Virus record (IMG/VR): IMGVR_UViG_2541047938_000005
Strand: one strand, 5' to 3'
Source: a virus
Lineage: Duplodnaviria > Heunggongvirae > Uroviricota > Caudoviricetes
Length of the DNA: 14,709 nt
In this document: positions 601-14,709 of the stretch, one piece after another
Layout: each line of letters opens with the position of its first letter
How positions within the stretch are numbered: position 1 is the stretch's first letter
The notes under the pieces: model-generated
The model's input: the letters and a program-made list of their open reading frames with translations, nothing else
Told to the model about the DNA's origin: nothing
Database searches by the model: none
Translations under genes and position numbers: made by a program

Positions 601-890
601 TGGTGAATTTACGTAAAGCGGCTAAAGGCCAGATGTGCCAGATCAGAATCCCTGGCTACTGCAATCACAATCCCGAAACCTCTGTGCTGGCGCATTACAG
701 GCTGGCGGGGACGTGCGGAACAGCGACAAAACCACATGATATGCAGGCGGCGATAGCCTGTAGCTCATGCCACGATCTAATCGACGGGCGGGTAAAAACC
801 AGCGATTACACCAAAGAAGAATTGCGCCTGATGCATGCTGAAGGGGTTTTTCGCACACAAGAAATCTGGAGAAAGAAAGGTCATTTATGA
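600..890 (+). CDS. YbcO-like Cys-rich nin-region protein (DUF1364, putative nuclease)
   Basis: 96 aa; motif MxxLRKAAxGxxCQxRIPGxCNxNPETSVLAH and CxxC pairs match what I recall of DLP12 YbcO. Start overlaps the upstream stop, and its own stop overlaps the Q start (ATGA at 887-890). Confidence 0.75.
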   Translation: MVNLRKAAKGQMCQIRIPGYCNHNPETSVLAHYRLAGTCGTATKPHDMQAAIACSSCHDLIDGRVKTSDYTKEELRLMHAEGVFRTQEIWRKKGHL

Positions 891-1429
891 TTTACCCAAC
901 GAATACAGGAAAAAGCGGAGAACACCTTCGCCTCACCACGCTGGAAAGTGTCTGGATTCAGGGAAAACTACGTATGTGGGGGCGCTGGTCGTATATTGGC
1001 GGTGGCAGGTCAGGGAATATGTTCAATCAGTTGTTGGCATCCAAAAAACTGACGAAAACAGCCATTAATGAAGCCCTGCGCAGAATGAAAAAAGCGGGAA
1101 TAGAGAAAGCTGAGCTGGAAGCGTTTTTGCGAGAGATGATCAACGGCAAGCAAAAGAGCTGGCTGGCGCATTGTACTGATGCAGAGGCGTTATGTATTGA
1201 TCGAGTCATAAGTGAGGTGCTGGCAGAGCATCCAGGATTGATTTGCATTCTCCGGCAACGCTATGAAGGGCGGGGGATGACTAAGCGCAAAATGGCTGAA
1301 TTGCTAAATGATGCACACCCAGAGTGGTGTTTTAGCACATGCGAAAAACGGATTGCTAATTGGTTAGCTGTTGCTGAGTATGCCCTATATATTCCCATGC
1401 GTGAATCATTTGCTGAGAAAATGGCTTGA
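887..1429 (+). CDS. Late-gene antitermination protein Q-like
   Basis: 180 aa, positioned right after nin genes and upstream of terminators and the lysis cassette. C-terminal segment MTKRKMAELLNDAHPEWCFSTCEKRIANWLAVAEYALY looks like a DNA-binding helix region. Family call is positional plus remembered similarity, not a search. Confidence 0.6.
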   Translation: MIYPTNTGKSGEHLRLTTLESVWIQGKLRMWGRWSYIGGGRSGNMFNQLLASKKLTKTAINEALRRMKKAGIEKAELEAFLREMINGKQKSWLAHCTDAEALCIDRVISEVLAEHPGLICILRQRYEGRGMTKRKMAELLNDAHPEWCFSTCEKRIANWLAVAEYALYIPMRESFAEKMA

Positions 1430-1538: not shown

Positions 1539-1856
1539 GTCAGGAAAGCAGGGGAGAATGCTGCTAGTTGGGCAACTGGTCTTTCTGCTCCAAATTATAA
1601 CAGAGACCAGTTATAGTTTCGGTGCTGTGTTTTTTTTACAATATTGTGATAACACATTGCTGGCGGGAGTTTTGATATTTCTTGGCAGGGGCTGATGATG
1701 CGTTATCCTGATGTCGTCAACTCATATAAAATGAGATGAGAGATCATTGCAGGGTGGTTTGTAATTCGCTGTTTAGCGGGACAATATGTTGTCTGATACA
1801 AGACACCCGACGCCTCAGATTACTATAATAAAGACGAAGCATCCTTTGTATTGACC

Positions 1857-1882
1857 AACCGCCTGTTTAGGCGGTTCTTTTT
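1857..1882 (+). terminator. Intrinsic terminator (candidate tR'-like element)
   Basis: Stem AACCGCC (1857-1863) / GGCGGTT (1870-1876), loop TGTTTA, followed by CTTTTT. A TATAAT hexamer lies at 1824-1829 without a convincing -35. Confidence 0.5.
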
Positions 1883-2414
1883 GGGCTGGTTTATTGTATG
1901 CCAAATGATTATTAAAAAGGTTGTGTTAATAACAAAATCCGAAATAATATGCCTGCATATTTTTATCTTGCTTATATTCTGCATATTGTGCATAGCAGGC
2001 TCATCCCTGCAATCAAAACTGTATGATGAGTATTTTTTGTTTTCCTTTTTTCCAGTCATCTGATGATGACCTGCTTCTTTTTAATCCGGATCGACATCAG
2101 TTTTTTAAGATAATTCCTGCGAGTTATATGCATAAATGCCACAAACTCCGCATTTTATGTGGTTGGGAGTTGCCGGGCGCGCAGTGAGTTTGCTAAGAAA
2201 ACTCCTGCATGGTGAATCCCCCTGTGCGGTGGGGTGATACCATTAACCTTTTCTGTCGCCGACAGGTATCACGAACATTTTGTTCACCGGGAGGCACCCG
2301 GCACCATGCACTTCAATAGATTCTCTCCACATTATGGATATTCTTTCAGAATATCCCACGCAGACTTTGTGTAAATGTTAACAAATGTGCGTTTTATTTG
2401 ATCTGATTCGCTGT

Positions 2415-2444
2415 TTGAGCGTCCAAAACAACGGTATATATAAT
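2415..2444 (+). promoter_or_regulatory. Candidate sigma70 promoter for the lipoprotein moron
   Basis: TTGAGC (2415-2420), 18-bp spacer, TATAAT (2439-2444, within TATATAAT), about 30 nt upstream of the GAGGA RBS at 2466-2470. Hexamer reading only. Confidence 0.3.
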
Positions 2445-2473
2445 CCTTTACTATATGACATATGTGAGGAAAA

Positions 2474-2902
2474 ATGGGTTTTCGTAGCGCATCAATTCTT
2501 ACGTTGATTATTAGTGGGATTATTATCGGGTGCACTGATGCTGTATCGACAAATTATCATGACCGTACATCATATTACTCCGATAAAGCAATAGAGACAC
2601 AGTATGTGAGTTCATCTGAACGTACTTCTGATGTTAGTGAGGATATCCGTCTGTATGCCCATCAAATCAAGAGCGCCATCGAAAAACAGTTCGGGGATGC
2701 GAGTAAGTATTCAGGAAAAGAGTGTACACTGAGAATGCATATGGCCCCGAATGGCCTTCTACTGGAGGTTAAAAGAGAAAGTGGAGACCTCGATTTATGT
2801 CGTGAAGCGATGAATGCGATAAAGAATGCTGATATACCTGCCCCCCCTTCGCCGGAAGTATATAAAGTATTTCAAAATGGGGTGCTGGATTTTAAACCCT
2901 GA
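2474..2902 (+). CDS. Lipoprotein with TolA C-terminal (domain III)-like module
   Basis: 142 aa. RBS GAGGA 2466-2470. N-terminal signal peptide with lipobox IIGC (Cys then Thr at +2, so no Asp Lol-avoidance signal). C-terminal ~85 aa track the TolA C-terminus as I recall it: YAHQIKSAIEKQF / CTLRMHMAPNGLLLEV / DLCREA / IPAPPSPEVYKVF / LDFKP. Confidence 0.8.
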   Translation: MGFRSASILTLIISGIIIGCTDAVSTNYHDRTSYYSDKAIETQYVSSSERTSDVSEDIRLYAHQIKSAIEKQFGDASKYSGKECTLRMHMAPNGLLLEVKRESGDLDLCREAMNAIKNADIPAPPSPEVYKVFQNGVLDFKP

Positions 2903-3052: not shown

Positions 3053-3448
3053 GTGGGATTAAAGAAAATCGTTATGTTGACTTTTTGGGTCGGTTTTGTT
3101 GCGGGATGCACACCTTTACACCCTTCAGATTGCCACAAAACTACTGCTACAGGTAGTTGCAGTTCAGGACGCTGGGATGATCAGGATGAATGGGGGGCGC
3201 AAGCGCGGGGAATCAGAGCTGCAATTAATGCCAAACTTGATGAGCCGCATAACTGGAAAGGGAAAAAATGCAGGTTGCATATGGAATTCTCTCAGGATGG
3301 CACGGCGTTAAAAATATCTACCAGTAACGGTGATAAAGCCTATTGCGAAGCGATAAAGTCCGCAGCTCATAAAGCCAAATTTCCGGCCTTCAACAATCCG
3401 GAAGTCTACAGAGATTTTCAGAAATCTGGCTTTGACATGCGAGGTTAG
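3053..3448 (+). CDS. Second, divergent lipoprotein with TolA domain III-like C-terminus
   Basis: 131 aa, GTG start 3053 with GAGGAG RBS 3041-3046. Lipobox VAGC with Thr at +2. C-terminus keeps the same scaffold in divergent form (KKCRLHMEFSQDGTALKI ... GDKAYCEAIKSAAHKAKFPAFNNPEVYRDFQ). No obvious terminator between the two genes, so probably co-transcribed. Confidence 0.7.
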   Translation: MGLKKIVMLTFWVGFVAGCTPLHPSDCHKTTATGSCSSGRWDDQDEWGAQARGIRAAINAKLDEPHNWKGKKCRLHMEFSQDGTALKISTSNGDKAYCEAIKSAAHKAKFPAFNNPEVYRDFQKSGFDMRG

Positions 3449-3573: not shown

Positions 3574-3596
3574 AGCTCGCTACGGCGAGCTTTTTA
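3574..3596 (+). terminator. Intrinsic terminator closing the lipoprotein moron
   Basis: Stem AGCTCGC (3574-3580) / GCGAGCT (3585-3591), loop TACG, followed by TTTTT. Confidence 0.5.
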
Positions 3597-3699
3597 TATT
3601 GCATCGTCTCCAGCATATATATCAATTAAGGCTCTGATTGATGTGTCTGAAAGCCTACACATAATAACTATGCCATCCGTTCCGTGCGGAGGTGAGGCT

Positions 3700-3915
3700 A
3701 TGAAATCCATGGACAAAATTTCAACAGGCATTGCCTACGGCACCTCCGCAGGCAGTGCTGGCTACTGGTTTTTACAGTTGCTCGATAGAGTAACTCCGTC
3801 ACAGTGGGCTGCAATCGGTGTGCTGGGTAGTCTGGTATTTGGCCTGCTGACGTACCTGACAAACCTTTATTTCAAGATTAAAGAAGATAAGCGCAAGGCT
3901 GCGAGAGGTGAATAA
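3700..3915 (+). CDS. S: Class II holin (pinholin), phage 21 S-type, with dual-start motif
   Basis: 71 aa: [26 protein letters not shown] ... [20 protein letters not shown]. Two in-frame starts (Met1 at 3700, Met4 at 3709) fit the antiholin/holin pair known for S21. The ORF track's upstream GTG (3643) is probably not the start; GGAGGTGAGG RBS at 3689-3697. Confidence 0.9.
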
Positions 3916-4412
3916 TGCCTCCATCATTACGAAAAGTCGTTGCTGCTGCTATTGGTGGCGGAGCAATTGCTATAGCATCAGTGTTAATCACTGGCCCAAG
4001 TGGTAACGATGGTCTGGAAGGTGTCAGCTACATACCATACAAAGATATTGTTGGTGTATGGACTGTATGTCACGGGCATACAGGAAAAGACATCATGCTC
4101 GGTAAAACGTATACCAAAGCAGAATGCAAAACACTCTTGAATAAAGACCTTGCCACTGTCGCCAGACAAATTAACCCGTACATCAAAGTCGATATACCGG
4201 AAACAACGCGCGGCGCTCTTTACTCATTCGTTTACAACGTGGGTGCTGGCAATTTCAGAACATCGACGCTTCTTCGCAAAATAAACCAGGGCGATATCAA
4301 AGGCGCATGTGATCAGCTACGTCGCTGGACATATGCTGGCGGTAAGCAATGGAAAGGTCTCATGACTCGTCGTGAGATTGAGCGTGAAATCTGTTTGTGG
4401 GGTCAGCAATGA
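3915..4412 (+). CDS. R: SAR (signal-arrest-release) endolysin, phage 21 R-type lysozyme
   Basis: 165 aa. Gly/Ala-rich N-terminal SAR helix ([20 protein letters not shown]), then lysozyme core with the E..D..T catalytic spacing ([24 protein letters not shown]). Start overlaps the S stop (TAATG). Confidence 0.9.
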
Positions 4413-4873
4413 ACAGAGTAACCGCGATTATCTCCGCTCTGGTTATCTGCATCATCGTCTGCCTGTCATGGGCTGTTAATCATTACCGTGATAACGCCAT
4501 TACCTACAAAGCCCAGCGCGACAAAAATGCCAGAGAACTGAAGCTGGCGAACGCGGCAATTACTGACATGCAGATGCGTCAGCGTGATGTTGCTGCGCTC
4601 GATGCAAAATACACGAAGGAGTTAGCTGATGCGAAAGCTGAAAATGATGCTCTGCGTGATGATGTTGCCGCTGGTCGTCGTCGGTTGCACATCAAAGCAG
4701 TCTGTCAGTCAGTGCGTGAAGCCACCACCGCCTCCGGCGTGGATAATGCAGCCTCCCCCCGACTGGCAGACACCGCTGAACGGGATTATTTCACCCTCCG
4801 GGAACGACTGGTAATGATGCAGGCCCAACTTGAAGGTGCTCAGCAATACATAACCGAGCAGTGTTTAAAGTAA
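4409..4873 (+). CDS. Rz: Rz inner-membrane spanin (i-spanin), lambda-type
   Basis: 154 aa from ATG 4409, overlapping the R stop (ATGA). N-terminal TM segment then coiled-coil periplasmic domain; close to lambda Rz as I recall it. Confidence 0.9.
4629..4814 (+). CDS. Rz1: Rz1 outer-membrane lipoprotein spanin (o-spanin), embedded in Rz in the +1 frame
   Basis: 61 aa: [20 protein letters not shown] (lipobox) followed by a proline-rich segment [23 protein letters not shown] about 8 nt upstream. Fully nested in Rz as in lambda. Confidence 0.85.
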
Positions 4874-5010
4874 AATCTTAACTACAATATGATTCATTTT
4901 GATGATTGTTTCATAAGGAACAGTGAAGTAAGATCTAAGAGGAGTTAAATTTTATACAGTATAATCATAATATTGCAGCAAGGTGGTTATAATTGAAAGA
5001 ATATTTAGAT

Positions 5011-6468
5011 ATGAATACATCTCATGTAAGAGTTGTTACTCATATGTGTGGGTTCCTGGTTTGGCTCTATAGTCTTTCAATGTTGCCACCAATGGTTGTA
5101 GCATTGTTTTATAAAGAAAAAAGCCTGTTCGTTTTCTTTATAACTTTCGTTATATTTTTTTGCATTGGTGGCGGAGCGTGGTATACAACTAAGAAATCTG
5201 GCATTCAATTACGTACCCGTGATGGGTTTATTATAATTGTAATGTTTTGGATTTTGTTTTCTGTTATTAGTGCATTCCCTTTATGGATTGACTCAGAACT
5301 TAATTTAACGTTCATTGATGCTCTGTTTGAAGGGGTTTCTGGAATAACAACAACAGGAGCAACTGTAATTGATGATGTTAGTTCATTACCTCGGGCATAT
5401 TTGTACTATCGGTCACAGTTAAATTTTATAGGTGGTTTAGGAGTTATTGTTCTGGCGGTTGCAGTATTGCCATTATTGGGTATTGGTGGTGCAAAGCTTT
5501 ATCAGTCAGAAATGCCGGGGCCATTTAAGGATGACAAACTCACTCCCCGCCTGGCCGATACGTCACGGACACTGTGGATAACTTATTCTTTATTAGGTAT
5601 TGCTTGTATTGTCTGTTATAGACTTGCAGGAATGCCTTTGTTTGATGCTATTTGTCACGGGATTTCCACAGTTTCGCTTGGTGGTTTCTCAACTCATAGC
5701 GAGAGTATCGGATATTTTAATAACTATTTGGTTGAGCTGGTGGCTGGTTCTTTTTCCCTGCTATCGGCTTTCAACTTCACTCTTTGGTATATTGTTATTA
5801 GCAGAAAAACGATAAAACCTTTAATCAGAGATATTGAACTTCGTTTCTTTCTGTTAATAGCCTTAGGGGTGATCATTGTTACCTCTTTCCAGGTCTGGCA
5901 TATAGGTATGTATGACTTGCATGGAAGTTTTATTCATTCGTTTTTTCTTGCCAGCTCCATGCTCACTGATAATGGTTTAGCTACGCAGGATTATGCAAAC
6001 TGGCCCACGCACACGATAGTGTTTTTGCTGTTGTCAAGTTTCTTTGGGGGATGTATAGGTTCAACCTGTGGTGGAATTAAGTCACTTCGATTTCTTATAC
6101 TTTTCAAACAAAGCAAACACGAGATAAATCAGCTTTCTCATCCCAGAGCGTTGTTGAGTGTAAATGTAGGAGGGAAGATAGTTACAGATCGTGTAATGAG
6201 GTCTGTATGGAGTTTCTTTTTTCTTTATACTCTCTTCACGGTGTTTTTTATACTGGTGTTAAATGGTATGGGATATGATTTTCTTACATCATTTGCAACA
6301 GTGGCTGCATGTATTAATAATATGGGATTAGGTTTTGGGGCTACTGCATCGTCATTCGGAGTGCTTAATGACATTGCAAAATATTTAATGTGCATAGCTA
6401 TGATTCTTGGTCGCCTTGAAATTTATCCTGTTATTATATTGTTTTCAGGTTTTTTTTGGCGCTCCTAA
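5011..6468 (+). CDS. trkG: Trk-system K+ uptake protein TrkG (TrkH/KtrB family)
   Basis: 485 aa from ATG 5011 (MNTSHVRVV...). Multi-pass membrane protein with repeated pore-loop-like glycine motifs (GITTTG, IGGLG, VSLGGF, TCGGIKS). Visibly AT-rich compared with flanking phage genes. trkG is an established Rac cargo gene. Confidence 0.9.
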   Translation: MNTSHVRVVTHMCGFLVWLYSLSMLPPMVVALFYKEKSLFVFFITFVIFFCIGGGAWYTTKKSGIQLRTRDGFIIIVMFWILFSVISAFPLWIDSELNLTFIDALFEGVSGITTTGATVIDDVSSLPRAYLYYRSQLNFIGGLGVIVLAVAVLPLLGIGGAKLYQSEMPGPFKDDKLTPRLADTSRTLWITYSLLGIACIVCYRLAGMPLFDAICHGISTVSLGGFSTHSESIGYFNNYLVELVAGSFSLLSAFNFTLWYIVISRKTIKPLIRDIELRFFLLIALGVIIVTSFQVWHIGMYDLHGSFIHSFFLASSMLTDNGLATQDYANWPTHTIVFLLLSSFFGGCIGSTCGGIKSLRFLILFKQSKHEINQLSHPRALLSVNVGGKIVTDRVMRSVWSFFFLYTLFTVFFILVLNGMGYDFLTSFATVAACINNMGLGFGATASSFGVLNDIAKYLMCIAMILGRLEIYPVIILFSGFFWRS

Positions 6469-6605: not shown

Positions 6606-7659
6606 ATGAGCGAGAAATTAAAGATAGTCTATCGCCCATTACAAGAATTGTCACCGTATGCGCACAACGCCAGGACGCACAGTACTGAGCAGGTGGCACA
6701 ACTGGTAGAAAGTATTAAGCAATTCGGCTGGACTAATCCGGTGCTGATTGACGAAAAGGGCGAAATTATTGCGGGTCACGGTCGTGTTATGGCGGCTGAA
6801 ATGCTCAAAATGGATTCTGTTCCGGTCATTGTTCTGTCTGGCCTGACGGATGAGCAGAAAAAGGCGTACCGCCTGGCAGATAATCGCCTGCCGATGAATG
6901 CTGGCTGGGATGAAGATCTGTTGCGGATGGAGCTGTCGGACCTAATCAATGCTGATTTTGATGTCTCCCTGACAGGCTTCATCCCGGCAGAAATTGATGA
7001 ACTGTTGACGGATGTTTTGCCCGGTACAGGAAATGAGGAGGAGCCGTATACGACGAAAATTGATACGCCTGTTTATGAGCCGTCAGGCGGTAAACCGGAT
7101 ATCAGTGAACTGTACGACGATACGAAAACTCAGGAGCTGATCAGCCGGATACGTTCGGCGTCCCTTGAATCATCTCTACCAGTGGCGCGATATAGCAGAA
7201 TTCGACAAGGCAGCGGCGCAGGCTTCCAGAGATGGCAAACCCGAACCGGAATATGGAGGCCTCGGCTTTGTTGATAACGCCATACCCAATCCGGACTGCC
7301 CGAAGTGCTGCGGTGAGGGAACGGGACAGCTTTATATGGCTGATACCACTCTGCTTGATGGGGATGCGCGGCAATTATATGCAGGGGCAAAATTCGGAAA
7401 ATTCGGCGTTGAGATCCTGCTGGAGGATAAGGCTGCCGCCCGGCGTGAATTGTTGCGTTTGTTTTCTGCTGGCGGGGCTTTATGTGCAGATAAGCGGCTA
7501 CGGGAACTGGAAATTGAACGGCGCAGAATGGAAAACCAGAAGCTGCGCAAAGAGATCGAAACGGTGGAAGATAATGAACATCCCCAGCCTGTGGCGATCA
7601 ATATTAATGTGGTTGATGCCAGAGTAAGGAGTGATGAAGATGATCTCTCCGACGCTTAA
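6606..7659 (+). pseudogene. ParB-like N-terminal domain protein (candidate small terminase subunit), reading frame disrupted near 7141-7170
   Basis: Frame 0 ORF 6606-7274 begins with a ParB N-terminal domain-like sequence (LKIVYRPLQELSPYAHNARTHS ... IIAGHGR). A +1 frame ORF is open from 7141 and runs to 7659, ending in a coiled-coil/acidic tail. A one-base shift near 7164-7168 would join them into ~350 aa. Could be a true frameshift, a sequencing error or programmed. Confidence 0.5.
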
Positions 7660-13276: not shown

Positions 13277-14125
13277 ATGACAGCCGTTGGCGAAGGTGAG
13301 TTACTCATCGGCTGGAGTGGTACAAGCGGTGCTCATGCTCCGGCATTTATTCGTTCACGACGGGATACGACCGACGCAAACTGGTCGCCGTGGGCGCAGC
13401 TTTACACCTCGGCTCATCCTCCTGCAGAGTTTTATCCAGTCGGTGCACCAATCCCGTGGCCATCAGATACCGTTCCGTCTGGTTATGCCCTGATGCAGGG
13501 GCAGACTTTTGACAAATCTGCATACCCGAAACTTGCAGTTGCTTATCCGTCAGGCGTGATCCCTGATATGCGTGGCTGGACGATTAAGGGCAAGCCCGCC
13601 AGTGGTCGGGCCGTATTATCTCAGGAACAGGACGGCATTAAATCGCACACCCACAGCGCCAGCGCATCCAGTACGGATTTGGGGACGAAAACCACATCGT
13701 CGTTTGATTACGGAACCAAATCCACGAATAACACCGGGGTGCATACCCATAGTATTAGCGGGACCGCAAATAGTGCTGGTGCGCACCAACACAAGAGTTC
13801 CGGTGCATTTGGTGGCACGAACACGAGCATTTTCCCTAATGGTTATACCGCGATTTCAAATCTAAGCGCGGGGATTATGAGCACAACAAGCGGTAGTGGC
13901 CAGACTCGTAATGCAGGGAAGACATCATCAGATGGTGCTCATACCCACTCGCTGTCCGGCACTGCTGCAAGCGCAGGCGCACATGCACATACTGTCGGTA
14001 TTGGTGCTCATACGCACTCCGTTGCGATTGGTTCACATGGACACACCATCACCGTTAACGCTGCTGGTAACGCGGAAAACACCGTCAAAAACATCGCATT
14101 TAACTATATTGTGAGGCTTGCATAA
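13277..14125 (+). CDS. stf: Side tail fiber protein, C-terminal receptor-binding portion only (collar-like domain plus His-x-His repeats)
   Basis: 282 aa. [50 protein letters not shown] followed by repeated HTHS/HAHT/HGHT motifs and the lambda Stf-like ending [14 protein letters not shown]. The long N-terminal shaft of full-length Stf (about 700-1100 aa) is missing. Confidence 0.8.
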
Positions 14126-14709
14126 TGGCATTCAGAATGAGTGAACAACCACGGACCATAAAAATTTATAATCTGCTGGCCGGAACTAATGAATTTATTG
14201 GTGAAGGTGATGCATATATTCCGCCTCATACAGGTCTGCCAGCAAACAGTACCGATATTGCACCGCCAGATATTCCGGCTGGCTTCGTGGCTGTTTTCAA
14301 CAGTGATGAGTCATCGTGGCATCTCGTTGAAGATCATCGGGGTAAAACGGTTTATGACGTGGCTTCCGGCGACGCGTTATTTATTTCTGAACTCGGTCCG
14401 TTACCGGAAAATGTTACCTGGTTATCGCCGGAAGGGGAGTTTCAGAAGTGGAACGGCACAGCCTGGGTGAAGGATACGGAAGCAGAAAAACTGTTCCGGA
14501 TCCGGGAGGCGGAAGAAACAAAAAACAACCTGATGCAGGTAGCCAGTGAGCATATTGCGCCGCTTCAGGATGCTGCAGATCTGGAAATTGCAACGGAGGA
14601 AGAAATCTCGTTGCTGGAAGCATGGAAAAAGTATCGGGTATTGCTGAACCGTGTTGATACGTCAACTGCACCTGATATTGAGTGGCCTACGAACCCTGTC
14701 AGGGAGTAA
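14125..14709 (+). CDS. tfa: Tail fiber assembly protein (Tfa)
   Basis: 194 aa beginning [34 protein letters not shown], characteristic of lambdoid Tfa/TfaR-type chaperones. Start overlaps the stf stop (TAATG). Stop codon is at the window end. Confidence 0.9.

Follow-up and report, generated by a model that had tools for sequence, protein, structure and literature searches.

The window analysed here is a stretch of 14,709 nucleotides from a Caudoviricetes virus (IMG/VR record IMGVR_UViG_2541047938_000005), which belongs to the late region of an E. coli prophage of the Rac-like lambdoid kind and carries a small gene, named here Lpp1, between a Q-like gene and the lysis genes. A NinB-like gene (1-600), a RusA-like gene (600-890) and the Q-like gene are followed by ~1 kb without any convincing gene, then by Lpp1, a second small open reading frame (ORF; named here Lpp2), an S21-type holin, an endolysin, Rz/Rz1 and trkG. 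It is nearly certain that Lpp1 is an accessory gene whose product combines a lipobox signal, a flexible linker of ~34 residues and a complete domain III of TolA (TolA-III). The features of the region, as well as those of the relatives found on plasmids and chromosomes, are collected in Table 1.

Table 1. Features of the Lpp1 region of the window, and TolA-III lipoprotein genes on plasmids and chromosomes
Feature	Sequence	Position	Strand	Basis or remark
Lpp1 gene, 142-amino-acid prophage lipoprotein with TolA-III	window	2474..2902, stop included	+	ORF; Pfam PF06519, 2.4e-23
Lpp1 signal peptide; lipobox I-I-G-C followed by Thr (+2) and Asp (+3)	window	2474..2533 (Cys20 codon 2531-2533)	+	read from sequence
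Lpp1 linker, residues 21-54, S/T/Y-rich	window	2534..2635	+	AlphaFold2, low confidence
Lpp1 TolA-III domain, residues 55-142	window	2636..2899	+	equivalent to E. coli TolA 334-421; Cys pair C84/C109
Lpp1 beta-2 segment LLEVKR, residues 96-101	window	2759..2776	+	equivalent to colicin A box LLDIKP, TolA 375-380
Lpp1 beta-3 strand and C-terminus NGVLDFKP, residues 135-142	window	2876..2899	+	alignment to TolA
Lpp2 gene, 131 amino acids from GTG 3053; lipobox V-A-G-C, Cys19, Thr at +2	window	3053..3448	+	Pfam PF06519, 1.3e-14
Q-like late-gene regulator, upstream bound of the accessory slot	window	887..1429	+	Pfam; DUF1133, weak Phage_antitermQ match
Lysis cassette, downstream bound of the slot	window	3700..4873	+	Pfam, ORFs, PGAP on identical LD39-1 region
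S21-type holin; endolysin; Rz with embedded Rz1	window	3700-3915; 3915-4412; 4397-4873 with 4629-4814	+	
Promoter-like TTGAGC-18-TATAAT, 30 nt 5' of Lpp1 start	window	2415..2444	+	10/12 consensus matches
GAGG Shine-Dalgarno of Lpp1	window	2466-2469	+	
Candidate late promoter AAGACA-18-TATAAT, then terminator-like hairpin (1857-1876) and T run	window	1800..1886	+	inferred
Terminator-like hairpin AGCTCGC-TACG-GCGAGCT (3574-3591) and T run, between Lpp2 and holin	window	3574..3601	+	
Lpp2-like plasmid copy	pO157 (L017)	6964-7395		further copies on IncI1/B/O plasmids L018 and L019
Klebsiella TolA-III lipoprotein, 144 amino acids, beside thioredoxin-fold gene	NZ_CP033755.1 (L020)	5812-6246		IncFII, MPF_F; one plasmid inspected
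Enterobacter Lpp2 homologue	L007-L009	6001-6435		beside GSHPx, RidA, TetR genes
Citrobacter amalonaticus Lpp2 homologue	L010	6001-6450		beside lactonase-like gene and ars operon

A TolA domain III behind a lipoprotein signal

Residues 55-142 of Lpp1 align with residues 334-421 of E. coli TolA without any gap, with 52 identical positions out of 88 (59.1%) and 64 positives, and the local score reaches 262, as compared to 24.8 +/- 4.5 (maximum 58) in 2000 shuffles. In addition, the Pfam profile TolA_C (PF06519) is matched over positions 4-96 of 96 with 82.6 bits (cut-off 25), and TolA chains of the PDB match Lpp1 at E = 5e-28. A preliminary description of this DNA had listed a series of motifs colinear with the TolA C-terminus, and every one of them is present in register in the alignment: QIKSAIE at 64-70 (TolA 343-349), CTLR at 84-87 (363-366), APnGlLLevK at 91-100 (370-379), the second cysteine C109 (C388), IPaPPSpeVYkVF at 121-133 (400-412) and the terminal LDFKP at 138-142 (417-421). 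The first helix is mostly kept (SEDIRLYAHQIKSAIE in Lpp1 vs GADINNYAGQIKSAIE in TolA), C84 and C109 are invariant in the aligned Lpp1 family, and all aligned variants end with (V/A)LDFK(P/L). The AlphaFold2 model displays block means of the predicted local distance difference test of ~82-94 for the domain and values below 50 for residues 1-52, and its helices (H) and strands (E), namely H56-72, E84-90, E96-104, H106-118, H127-133 and E135-140, follow the TolA-III order. Foldseek placed this model on 2x9a_B and 1tol with a root-mean-square deviation (rmsd) of 0.6-0.7 Å, and the matches to 3qdp, 2x9a_B, 3qdr_A and 1tol ranged from E = 2.5e-12 to 3.3e-11 (rmsd 0.6-1.8 Å). Given the Pfam, PDB and fold-model results, the similarity is not limited to low-complexity segments.

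Outside its own family, the Lpp1 domain is nearest to that of E. coli TolA (59%), with 55-56% identity to other enterobacterial TolA and 51-53% to other stand-alone lipoproteins. In a neighbour-joining tree (88 columns, 200 bootstraps), the Lpp1 family was monophyletic in 183 of 200 replicates, and its placement among enterobacterial TolA and stand-alone lipoproteins obtained at most 19 of 200. The domain may have been captured directly from tolA.

The N-terminus (MGFRSASILTLIISGIIIGC/TD) carries R4, uncharged hydrophobic residues from 5 to 19 and the lipobox cysteine at position 20. Read directly, this signal agrees with the lipoprotein rule of the PROSITE PS51257 type, i.e., K/R among residues 1-7, a hydrophobic stretch devoid of charge, and [LVI..][..][AGS]-Cys with the cysteine at 15-35. 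Cys20 is invariant and followed by Thr in 8/8 variants of the Lpp1 family, although the remaining signal peptide varies, and among 20 aligned family members Cys20 is again invariant and Gly19 nearly so. The enterobacterial sorting rule sends lipoproteins without Asp at +2 to the outer membrane, and Lpp1 is predicted to be located there because its +2 residue is not Asp. The lipoprotein signal reported in the preliminary description (IIGC, Thr at +2) is thus present as stated, and the outer-membrane anchoring that it predicted, unlike the inner-membrane anchoring of TolA, agrees with the +2 rule.

Note that RefSeq/PGAP names Lpp1 'tolA: cell envelope integrity protein TolA'. This name arises because a match to the domain alone passes the cut-off of the NCBIfam equivalog TIGR02794 (75.6 bits, cut-off 59.45), and it misleads counts of tol genes. 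That Lpp1 would be a true TolA, as the name implies, or an inert tolA fragment taken up by the phage, is highly improbable, and both ideas were rejected as contradicted by the sequence. Indeed, the match to TIGR02794 covers no more than positions 265-362 of the 362 in this model (and that to NF007065 no more than 293-386), the protein lacks both the membrane anchor that couples TolA to TolQR (domain I) and the long helical domain II, and the gene is surrounded by the Q-like gene, Lpp2, holin, endolysin and Rz/Rz1 with no tol-pal operon (ybgC-tolQRA-tolB-pal-cpoB). As for an inert fragment, it is hardly compatible with an own export signal, with purifying selection and with a gene that is full length in 893 genomes.

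The accessory slot, Lpp2 and other relatives

In E. coli LD39-1, the genes kilR, sieB, ydaE/ydaF, trkG and tfaR surround the stretch identical to the window, and the prophage is therefore of the Rac type. In the window, trkG (a potassium transporter gene, 4993-6468) directly follows Rz/Rz1 with a G+C content of 0.33-0.43, clearly below that of the flanking phage genes; trkG inside a prophage is a known hallmark of Rac. Among isolated-phage genomes, mEp460_ev081 is the sole record with Lpp1 or Lpp2, and it carries the same two genes (Lpp1 identical) between the Q gene and the lysis genes; the family is mainly represented by prophages and IMG/VR contigs.

In lambdoid prophages, Lpp1 is invariably located between Q and holin, with at least three different modules upstream of it, and its presence varies among related prophages. 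This interval holds Lpp1 with Lpp2, Lpp1 alone, or Lpp1 together with other accessory genes, and the Q types differ. The fixed slot, the varied upstream modules and the presence/absence pattern correspond to the behaviour of an accessory gene or 'moron', a term used for independent accessory transcription units in phage late operons (PMC3594210, excerpt). The promoter-like site at 2415-2444 and the terminator-like hairpin at 3574-3591 are candidates for the promoter and the terminator of such a unit. The family comprises variants with 91, 74 and 65-69% identity, all of ~142 amino acids. The 91% and 66% variants lie in other lambdoid prophages from the Q gene (PF03589 or DUF1133) to the holin, without Lpp2 and sometimes beside an AraC-like regulator or nanS-p, and the DNA upstream of the 66% variants is unrelated to the window. 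In one locus of the 66% variant (L005), two strong terminator-like hairpins follow the gene (6612-6689), and the slot also contains SASA-domain (nanS-p-type), DUF1378 and DUF826 genes; in Stx phages, stx is located in this slot.

Among 5426 complete E. coli genomes, 898 (~16%) carry a member of the Lpp1 family and 893 have the gene at full length. The named sources of this family are all E. coli or Shigella, and it always lies in prophages. At an identity of at least 99%, Lpp1 is present in 782 of the complete genomes and Lpp2 in 784. Among three Lpp1 variants, the ratio of non-synonymous to synonymous substitution rates (dN/dS) was 0.09-0.34 for the domain and 0.31-0.59 for the linker, the linker value exceeding that of the domain in 2/3 comparisons. 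The domain is under purifying selection and, considering also its full length in so many genomes, the gene is therefore maintained and is not debris. One variant (P0023) is a mosaic in which the signal, the linker and the first helix belong to the 66% lineage and the sequence from ~residue 76 is identical to the window Lpp1, which indicates recombination within the gene.

Lpp2 begins 150 bp 3' of Lpp1 and encodes a second TolA-III lipoprotein that is 29% identical to Lpp1. Its signal from GTG 3053 (MGLKKIVMLTFWVGFVAGC/T) is preceded by a GAGGAG Shine-Dalgarno sequence. RefSeq places the start in LD39-1 at window position 3074, which would put the cysteine at position 12 without a basic n-region; we prefer GTG 3053 because the later start removes this n-region, of which the KKIV residues are conserved in homologues. 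The +2 residue in the Lpp2 family is Thr, Ala, Ser or Gly. The Lpp2 linker (3128-3160, residues 26-36) has two extra cysteines, C27 and C36 (...SDCHKTTATGSCSSGRW...), without equivalent in the linker of Lpp1. They do not vary from genus to genus, and a disulfide between them may staple a loop. With TolA, Lpp2 shares only 5/20 of the positions on the side that binds g3p, colicin N and TolB and 2/8 of those at the colicin A site, and Lpp1 and Lpp2 therefore probably differ in their ligands. In 79 IMG/VR loci, Lpp1 (99-100%) and Lpp2 (97-99%) occur at fixed spacing wherever the contig reaches, the Lpp2 start always lying 579 nt past the Lpp1 start and the S21-type holin coming next. This pair stands behind at least two upstream modules and beside two different endolysins, and PHROG family 5772 holds both proteins (E = 1.6e-62 for Lpp1 and 6.7e-65 for Lpp2).

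Citrobacter, Enterobacter, Klebsiella, Raoultella and Serratia possess homologues with 78-89% identity to Lpp2, and copies with ~88% identity are located on E. coli/Shigella plasmids (536 plasmid places in the 5426 complete genomes and 600 PLSDB records). A set of 526 'plasmid' places was traced to Lpp2 and not to the DNA upstream of Lpp1. In the three plasmids inspected (IncI1/B/O, pO26_H19_1 and pO157), the copy lies directly 3' of the relaxase gene nikB. Overall, ~23% of complete E. coli genomes contain Lpp2 relatives, among them those carried by pO157 and by many resistance plasmids of the IncI1/B/O type. Another ~310 plasmids, mostly from Klebsiella, hold a TolA-III match that is more distant; the lipoprotein of the conjugative Klebsiella pneumoniae plasmid NZ_CP033755.1 has the N-terminus MNLRAFSAPILTLVLLITAC/S... 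with the lipobox LITAC/S and ends with ALDFRL. On a larger scale, a library-wide HMMER search returned 333 clusters, and among the 147 representatives examined, 68 were stand-alone TolA-III proteins of 110-175 amino acids, at least 43 of them with a lipobox. Stand-alone TolA-III lipoproteins are a wide family that has been catalogued without a function.

Several further elements of the window should be mentioned. The strong terminator-like hairpin located ~30 nt past the promoter-like site of the 1800 region (AACCGCC-TGTT-TAGGCGGTT and a T run) could, together with that site, constitute a Q-dependent late promoter and its terminator. The Rfam small RNA family STnc100 matches positions 2177-2363 (+) with 86.6 bits (gathering threshold 47) and ends ~110 nt 5' of the Lpp1 start, and at least the last 130 nt before this start, into which the 3' end of the match reaches, differ very little in loci of the 91% variant. 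At the end of the window, Rfam IS009 (14468-14666, +, 220.9 bits) lies within the tail-fibre-assembly gene, and a tail-fibre ORF (13277-14125) contains a His-rich run of repeats (GAHTHS, GVHTHS, GAHAHT, GSHGHT). No tRNA gene was found in the 14,709-nt window.

Proposed ligand capture and competing roles

In TolA-III, the N1 domain of g3p from Ff/If1, colicin N and the N-terminus of TolB each add a strand to beta-3, A415-K420 (PMC4339652, PMC7391070). The three compete for this strand, proline at D418 or K420 abolishes all three interactions, beta-3 mutations lead to a tol phenotype, and the dissociation constants are ~1-12 µM for the parasites and ~40 µM for TolB (PMC4339652); the binding of If1 g3p to TolA-III is shown by PDB 2x9a. 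Colicin A adds its strand to beta-2 (L375-P380) and forms cation-pi contacts with K368, K379 and K396 (PMC3365938). Both sites rely largely on backbone beta-strand augmentation, for which single side-chain changes matter little (PMC4339652, PMC3365938). In Lpp1, L138-K141 are identical to TolA 417-420 without proline at the equivalents of D418 and K420, the beta-3 end reads GVLDFKP vs APLDFKP in TolA, the colicin A box is partly kept (LLEVKR vs LLDIKP), and the substitutions include K368H, P380R, K399D, N338R and N339L. Since binding involves the backbone and both the strand and the fold are kept, binding by Lpp1 is plausible, although it cannot be read from sequence alone. The terminal LDFKP, which the preliminary description had singled out, is no special sign in Lpp1, since xLDFKP ends most of the family sequences listed; a conserved ligand, e.g., TolB, would account for its recurrence no less well than phage or colicin binding would.

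With 400-800 copies per cell, TolA is scarce, and current models keep its domain III below the peptidoglycan unless energised (PMC8928145); an incoming ligand would therefore encounter an outer-membrane copy before TolA. The suggestion that a colicin or g3p would make its first contact with Lpp1 is consistent with these current models, which place an outer-membrane-tethered copy ahead of TolA-III.

Altogether, we propose, and give the proposal about an even chance, that Lpp1 acts as an outer-membrane-tethered decoy that would trap Tol-dependent invaders or the TolB N-terminus. The TolA-III of Lpp1 would hang on its 34-residue tether in the outer periplasm, ahead of the host TolA-III, and its beta-3 would capture, by beta-strand augmentation, the N1 domain of g3p from filamentous phages, the part of colicin N that binds TolA, or the N-terminus of TolB, which is the route of TolB-dependent colicins to TolA. 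Its beta-2 may capture colicin A. Because the decoy is uncoupled from the TolQR motor, the ligand could not be pulled inward; entry would stall, and the lysogen would be protected from Tol-dependent phages and bacteriocins. Lpp2, with its very different surface residues, would cover other ligands. What the sequences show of this model is the TolA-III domain, the lipobox signal, the purifying selection and the accessory-gene behaviour in genomes; the localisation, an expression in the lysogen, the binding and the protection are supposed. Also in favour of a decoy, TolA-III lipoproteins are carried by conjugative plasmids, close relatives beside the relaxase gene on IncI1/B/O and distant ones on Klebsiella IncFII, and the pili of such plasmids are receptors of filamentous phages. 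By analogy, periplasmic titration works in the reverse direction, as g3p-N1 produced in the periplasm sequesters TolA and causes a 4-log drop in fd uptake and resistance to colicin A (PMC10424213).

Several observations weigh against the decoy. Identity to TolA is not enriched at the interfaces, neither on the g3p/colicin N/TolB side (14/20 contact-guided positions identical vs 38/68 elsewhere, Fisher p = 0.31) nor at the colicin A site (4/8 vs 48/80 elsewhere, p = 0.71), and three colicin A contacts are changed (K368 to H, P380 to R, D377 to E). The idea of the preliminary description that the conservation reflects binding surfaces retained beyond a shared fold did not survive this comparison, since interface identity does not exceed the overall 59%, and we dropped the argument as the enrichment is not significant. 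Moreover, the PADLOC models of known defence systems gave no match to Lpp1. Over-produced periplasmic TolA-III makes E. coli leak periplasmic proteins (excerpt of PMC6195910, citing Wan & Baneyx 1998 and Levengood-Freyermuth 1993), so a decoy would be costly and could serve another purpose. Lpp2 homologues of 86% identity are non-prophage chromosomal genes in Enterobacter and Citrobacter amalonaticus, which gives a hint of a physiological role. Lastly, promoter-like sites of the kind seen 5' of Lpp1 are barely above chance in this AT-rich region (11 found vs 7.2 expected), and the -10 element is degraded to TGTAAT in the 91% variant.

The place of both genes directly 5' of holin-endolysin-Rz/Rz1 and 3' of the Q-like gene, within a fixed cassette with the S21-type holin, raises the question of a helper for lysis or egress. 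According to this explanation, Lpp1 and Lpp2 expressed from the late operon would flood the outer periplasm and titrate the TolB N-terminus away from TolA, and the blocked mobilisation of Pal would lead to a transient tol phenotype (loose, blebbing outer membrane) aiding the spanins or the release of vesicles. The leakage caused by over-produced TolA-III would be in line with it, as would the fact that beta-3 is also the TolB site, where mutations yield a tol phenotype. We nevertheless consider it unlikely, since a terminator-like hairpin separates Lpp2 from the holin, the 65-68% variants of Lpp1 are separated from the holin by 3.5-4.5 kb that contain other accessory genes, and lysis genes are absent from the vicinity of the relatives on plasmids and chromosomes. 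In addition, Rz/Rz1 spanins are already present, and they suffice for the disruption of the outer membrane.

The chromosomal homologues, conserved in non-prophage sites of Enterobacter and Citrobacter, suggest a further explanation, in which the tethered TolA-III, produced at a low level, is a lysogenic-conversion modulator that tunes the TolB-Pal cycling of the host and is not aimed at invaders. Such a modulator could affect envelope stiffness, vesiculation, detergent/bile tolerance or the capture of Pal at the division site, and the mobile copies would have been borrowed from a chromosomal housekeeping family; the many stand-alone TolA-III proteins with a lipobox among the HMMER representatives (at least 43 of the 68) and the fact that the most recurrent C-terminal motif is the strand binding the universal ligand TolB point in this direction. 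We doubt this explanation, however, as the repeated capture by three kinds of mobile elements, two of which expose the cell to TolA-dependent filamentous phages, fits defence better, and as the Lpp1 family is confined to prophages of E. coli and Shigella among the named sources.

Returning to the decoy, a broader version would see in outer-membrane-tethered TolA-III copies a widespread and unrecognised decoy defence of mobile elements (lambdoid prophages, IncI1/B/O and Klebsiella IncFII plasmids), a tentative generalisation that we judge somewhat more likely to fail than to hold. Such copies would intercept g3p, group A bacteriocins or the hijacked TolB N-terminus before the motor-coupled TolA, conjugative plasmids would thereby offset the phage liability of their own pili, and a tandem of divergent paralogues would broaden the ligand coverage. 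TolA-III is the common entry handle of Ff, If1 and CTX-type filamentous phages and of group A colicins, and if a detached outer-membrane copy protects the cell, this would be a new host defence by imitation of a periplasmic co-receptor and not by masking of a surface receptor. It would then concern ~16% of E. coli genomes for the Lpp1 family and, for the distant relatives, several hundred Klebsiella IncFII plasmids, with a bearing on strain variation in colicin and phage sensitivity, on host range in phage display and phage therapy, and on the fitness of resistance plasmids. As a tool for Tol-Pal studies, a force-uncoupled TolA-III at the outer membrane can also probe whether TolB capture needs the inner-membrane side.

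Relation to known systems

Full-text literature searches turned up no study devoted to TolA-III lipoproteins from phages or plasmids. The only remark found was that of a genome paper of 2010, which mentioned a 'putative colicin uptake protein TolA' for a Cronobacter lambdoid prophage and guessed a role in phage internalisation (PMC2833190), and in a 2024 review of superinfection exclusion (PMC11436027), TolA is absent by term count. Three other leads were set aside: phage vB_AspA_Tola shares only the name, 'EDL933_2012 ... (TolA)' in PMC11125564 is a tail fibre protein in the table of that paper, and the tolA of an O157 soil array paper is the host tolA. Existing labels, i.e., 'unknown function' for PHROG 5772, and 'TolA C-terminal domain-containing protein' or 'tolA family protein' in RefSeq, name the domain and not the role. 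A diverged copy of a host component that prevents superinfection has been described in the FimU-like minor pilins of Pseudomonas prophages (excerpt of PMC12952977); these alter the type IV pilus, whereas Lpp1 resembles a part of Tol-Pal and is proposed to act as a detached decoy.

Compared with TolA itself, the TolA-III structures (PDB 1S62, 1TOL, 3QDP/3QDR, 2X9A) have the same fold order, Cys pair, LDFKP and QIKSAIE helix as Lpp1. However, TolA is an inner-membrane, force-transducing protein of the tol-pal operon, whereas Lpp1 is a prophage gene product without the force link and is predicted at the outer membrane. Laboratory constructs (TolAIII with a signal sequence, and periplasmic g3p-N1) likewise disturb Tol-dependent import and the envelope, but they are soluble, over-produced and have strong side effects, whereas Lpp1 is natural, predicted to be membrane-tethered, and diverged at its surface.

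Cor of lambdoid phages and Llp of T5, which act on FhuA, are outer-membrane lipoproteins that close the import route of other phages and colicins. Cor, which shuts the import route of phages and colicins, is itself an accessory gene of lambdoid prophages, and Llp also shuts the import route (bioRxiv 10.64898/2026.03.26.714494, excerpt). Scans of Lpp1 with Pfam, NCBIfam and PHROG returned only TolA/TonB-type or unnamed families, with no comparison aimed at Cor or Llp. While Cor and Llp plug the receptor itself, Lpp1 would imitate the periplasmic co-receptor and bind the invader or TolB. The domain is known and the architecture has been catalogued without a function, and the action proposed here would, by analogy, extend to the Tol system the theme of entry-route closure represented by Cor and Llp.

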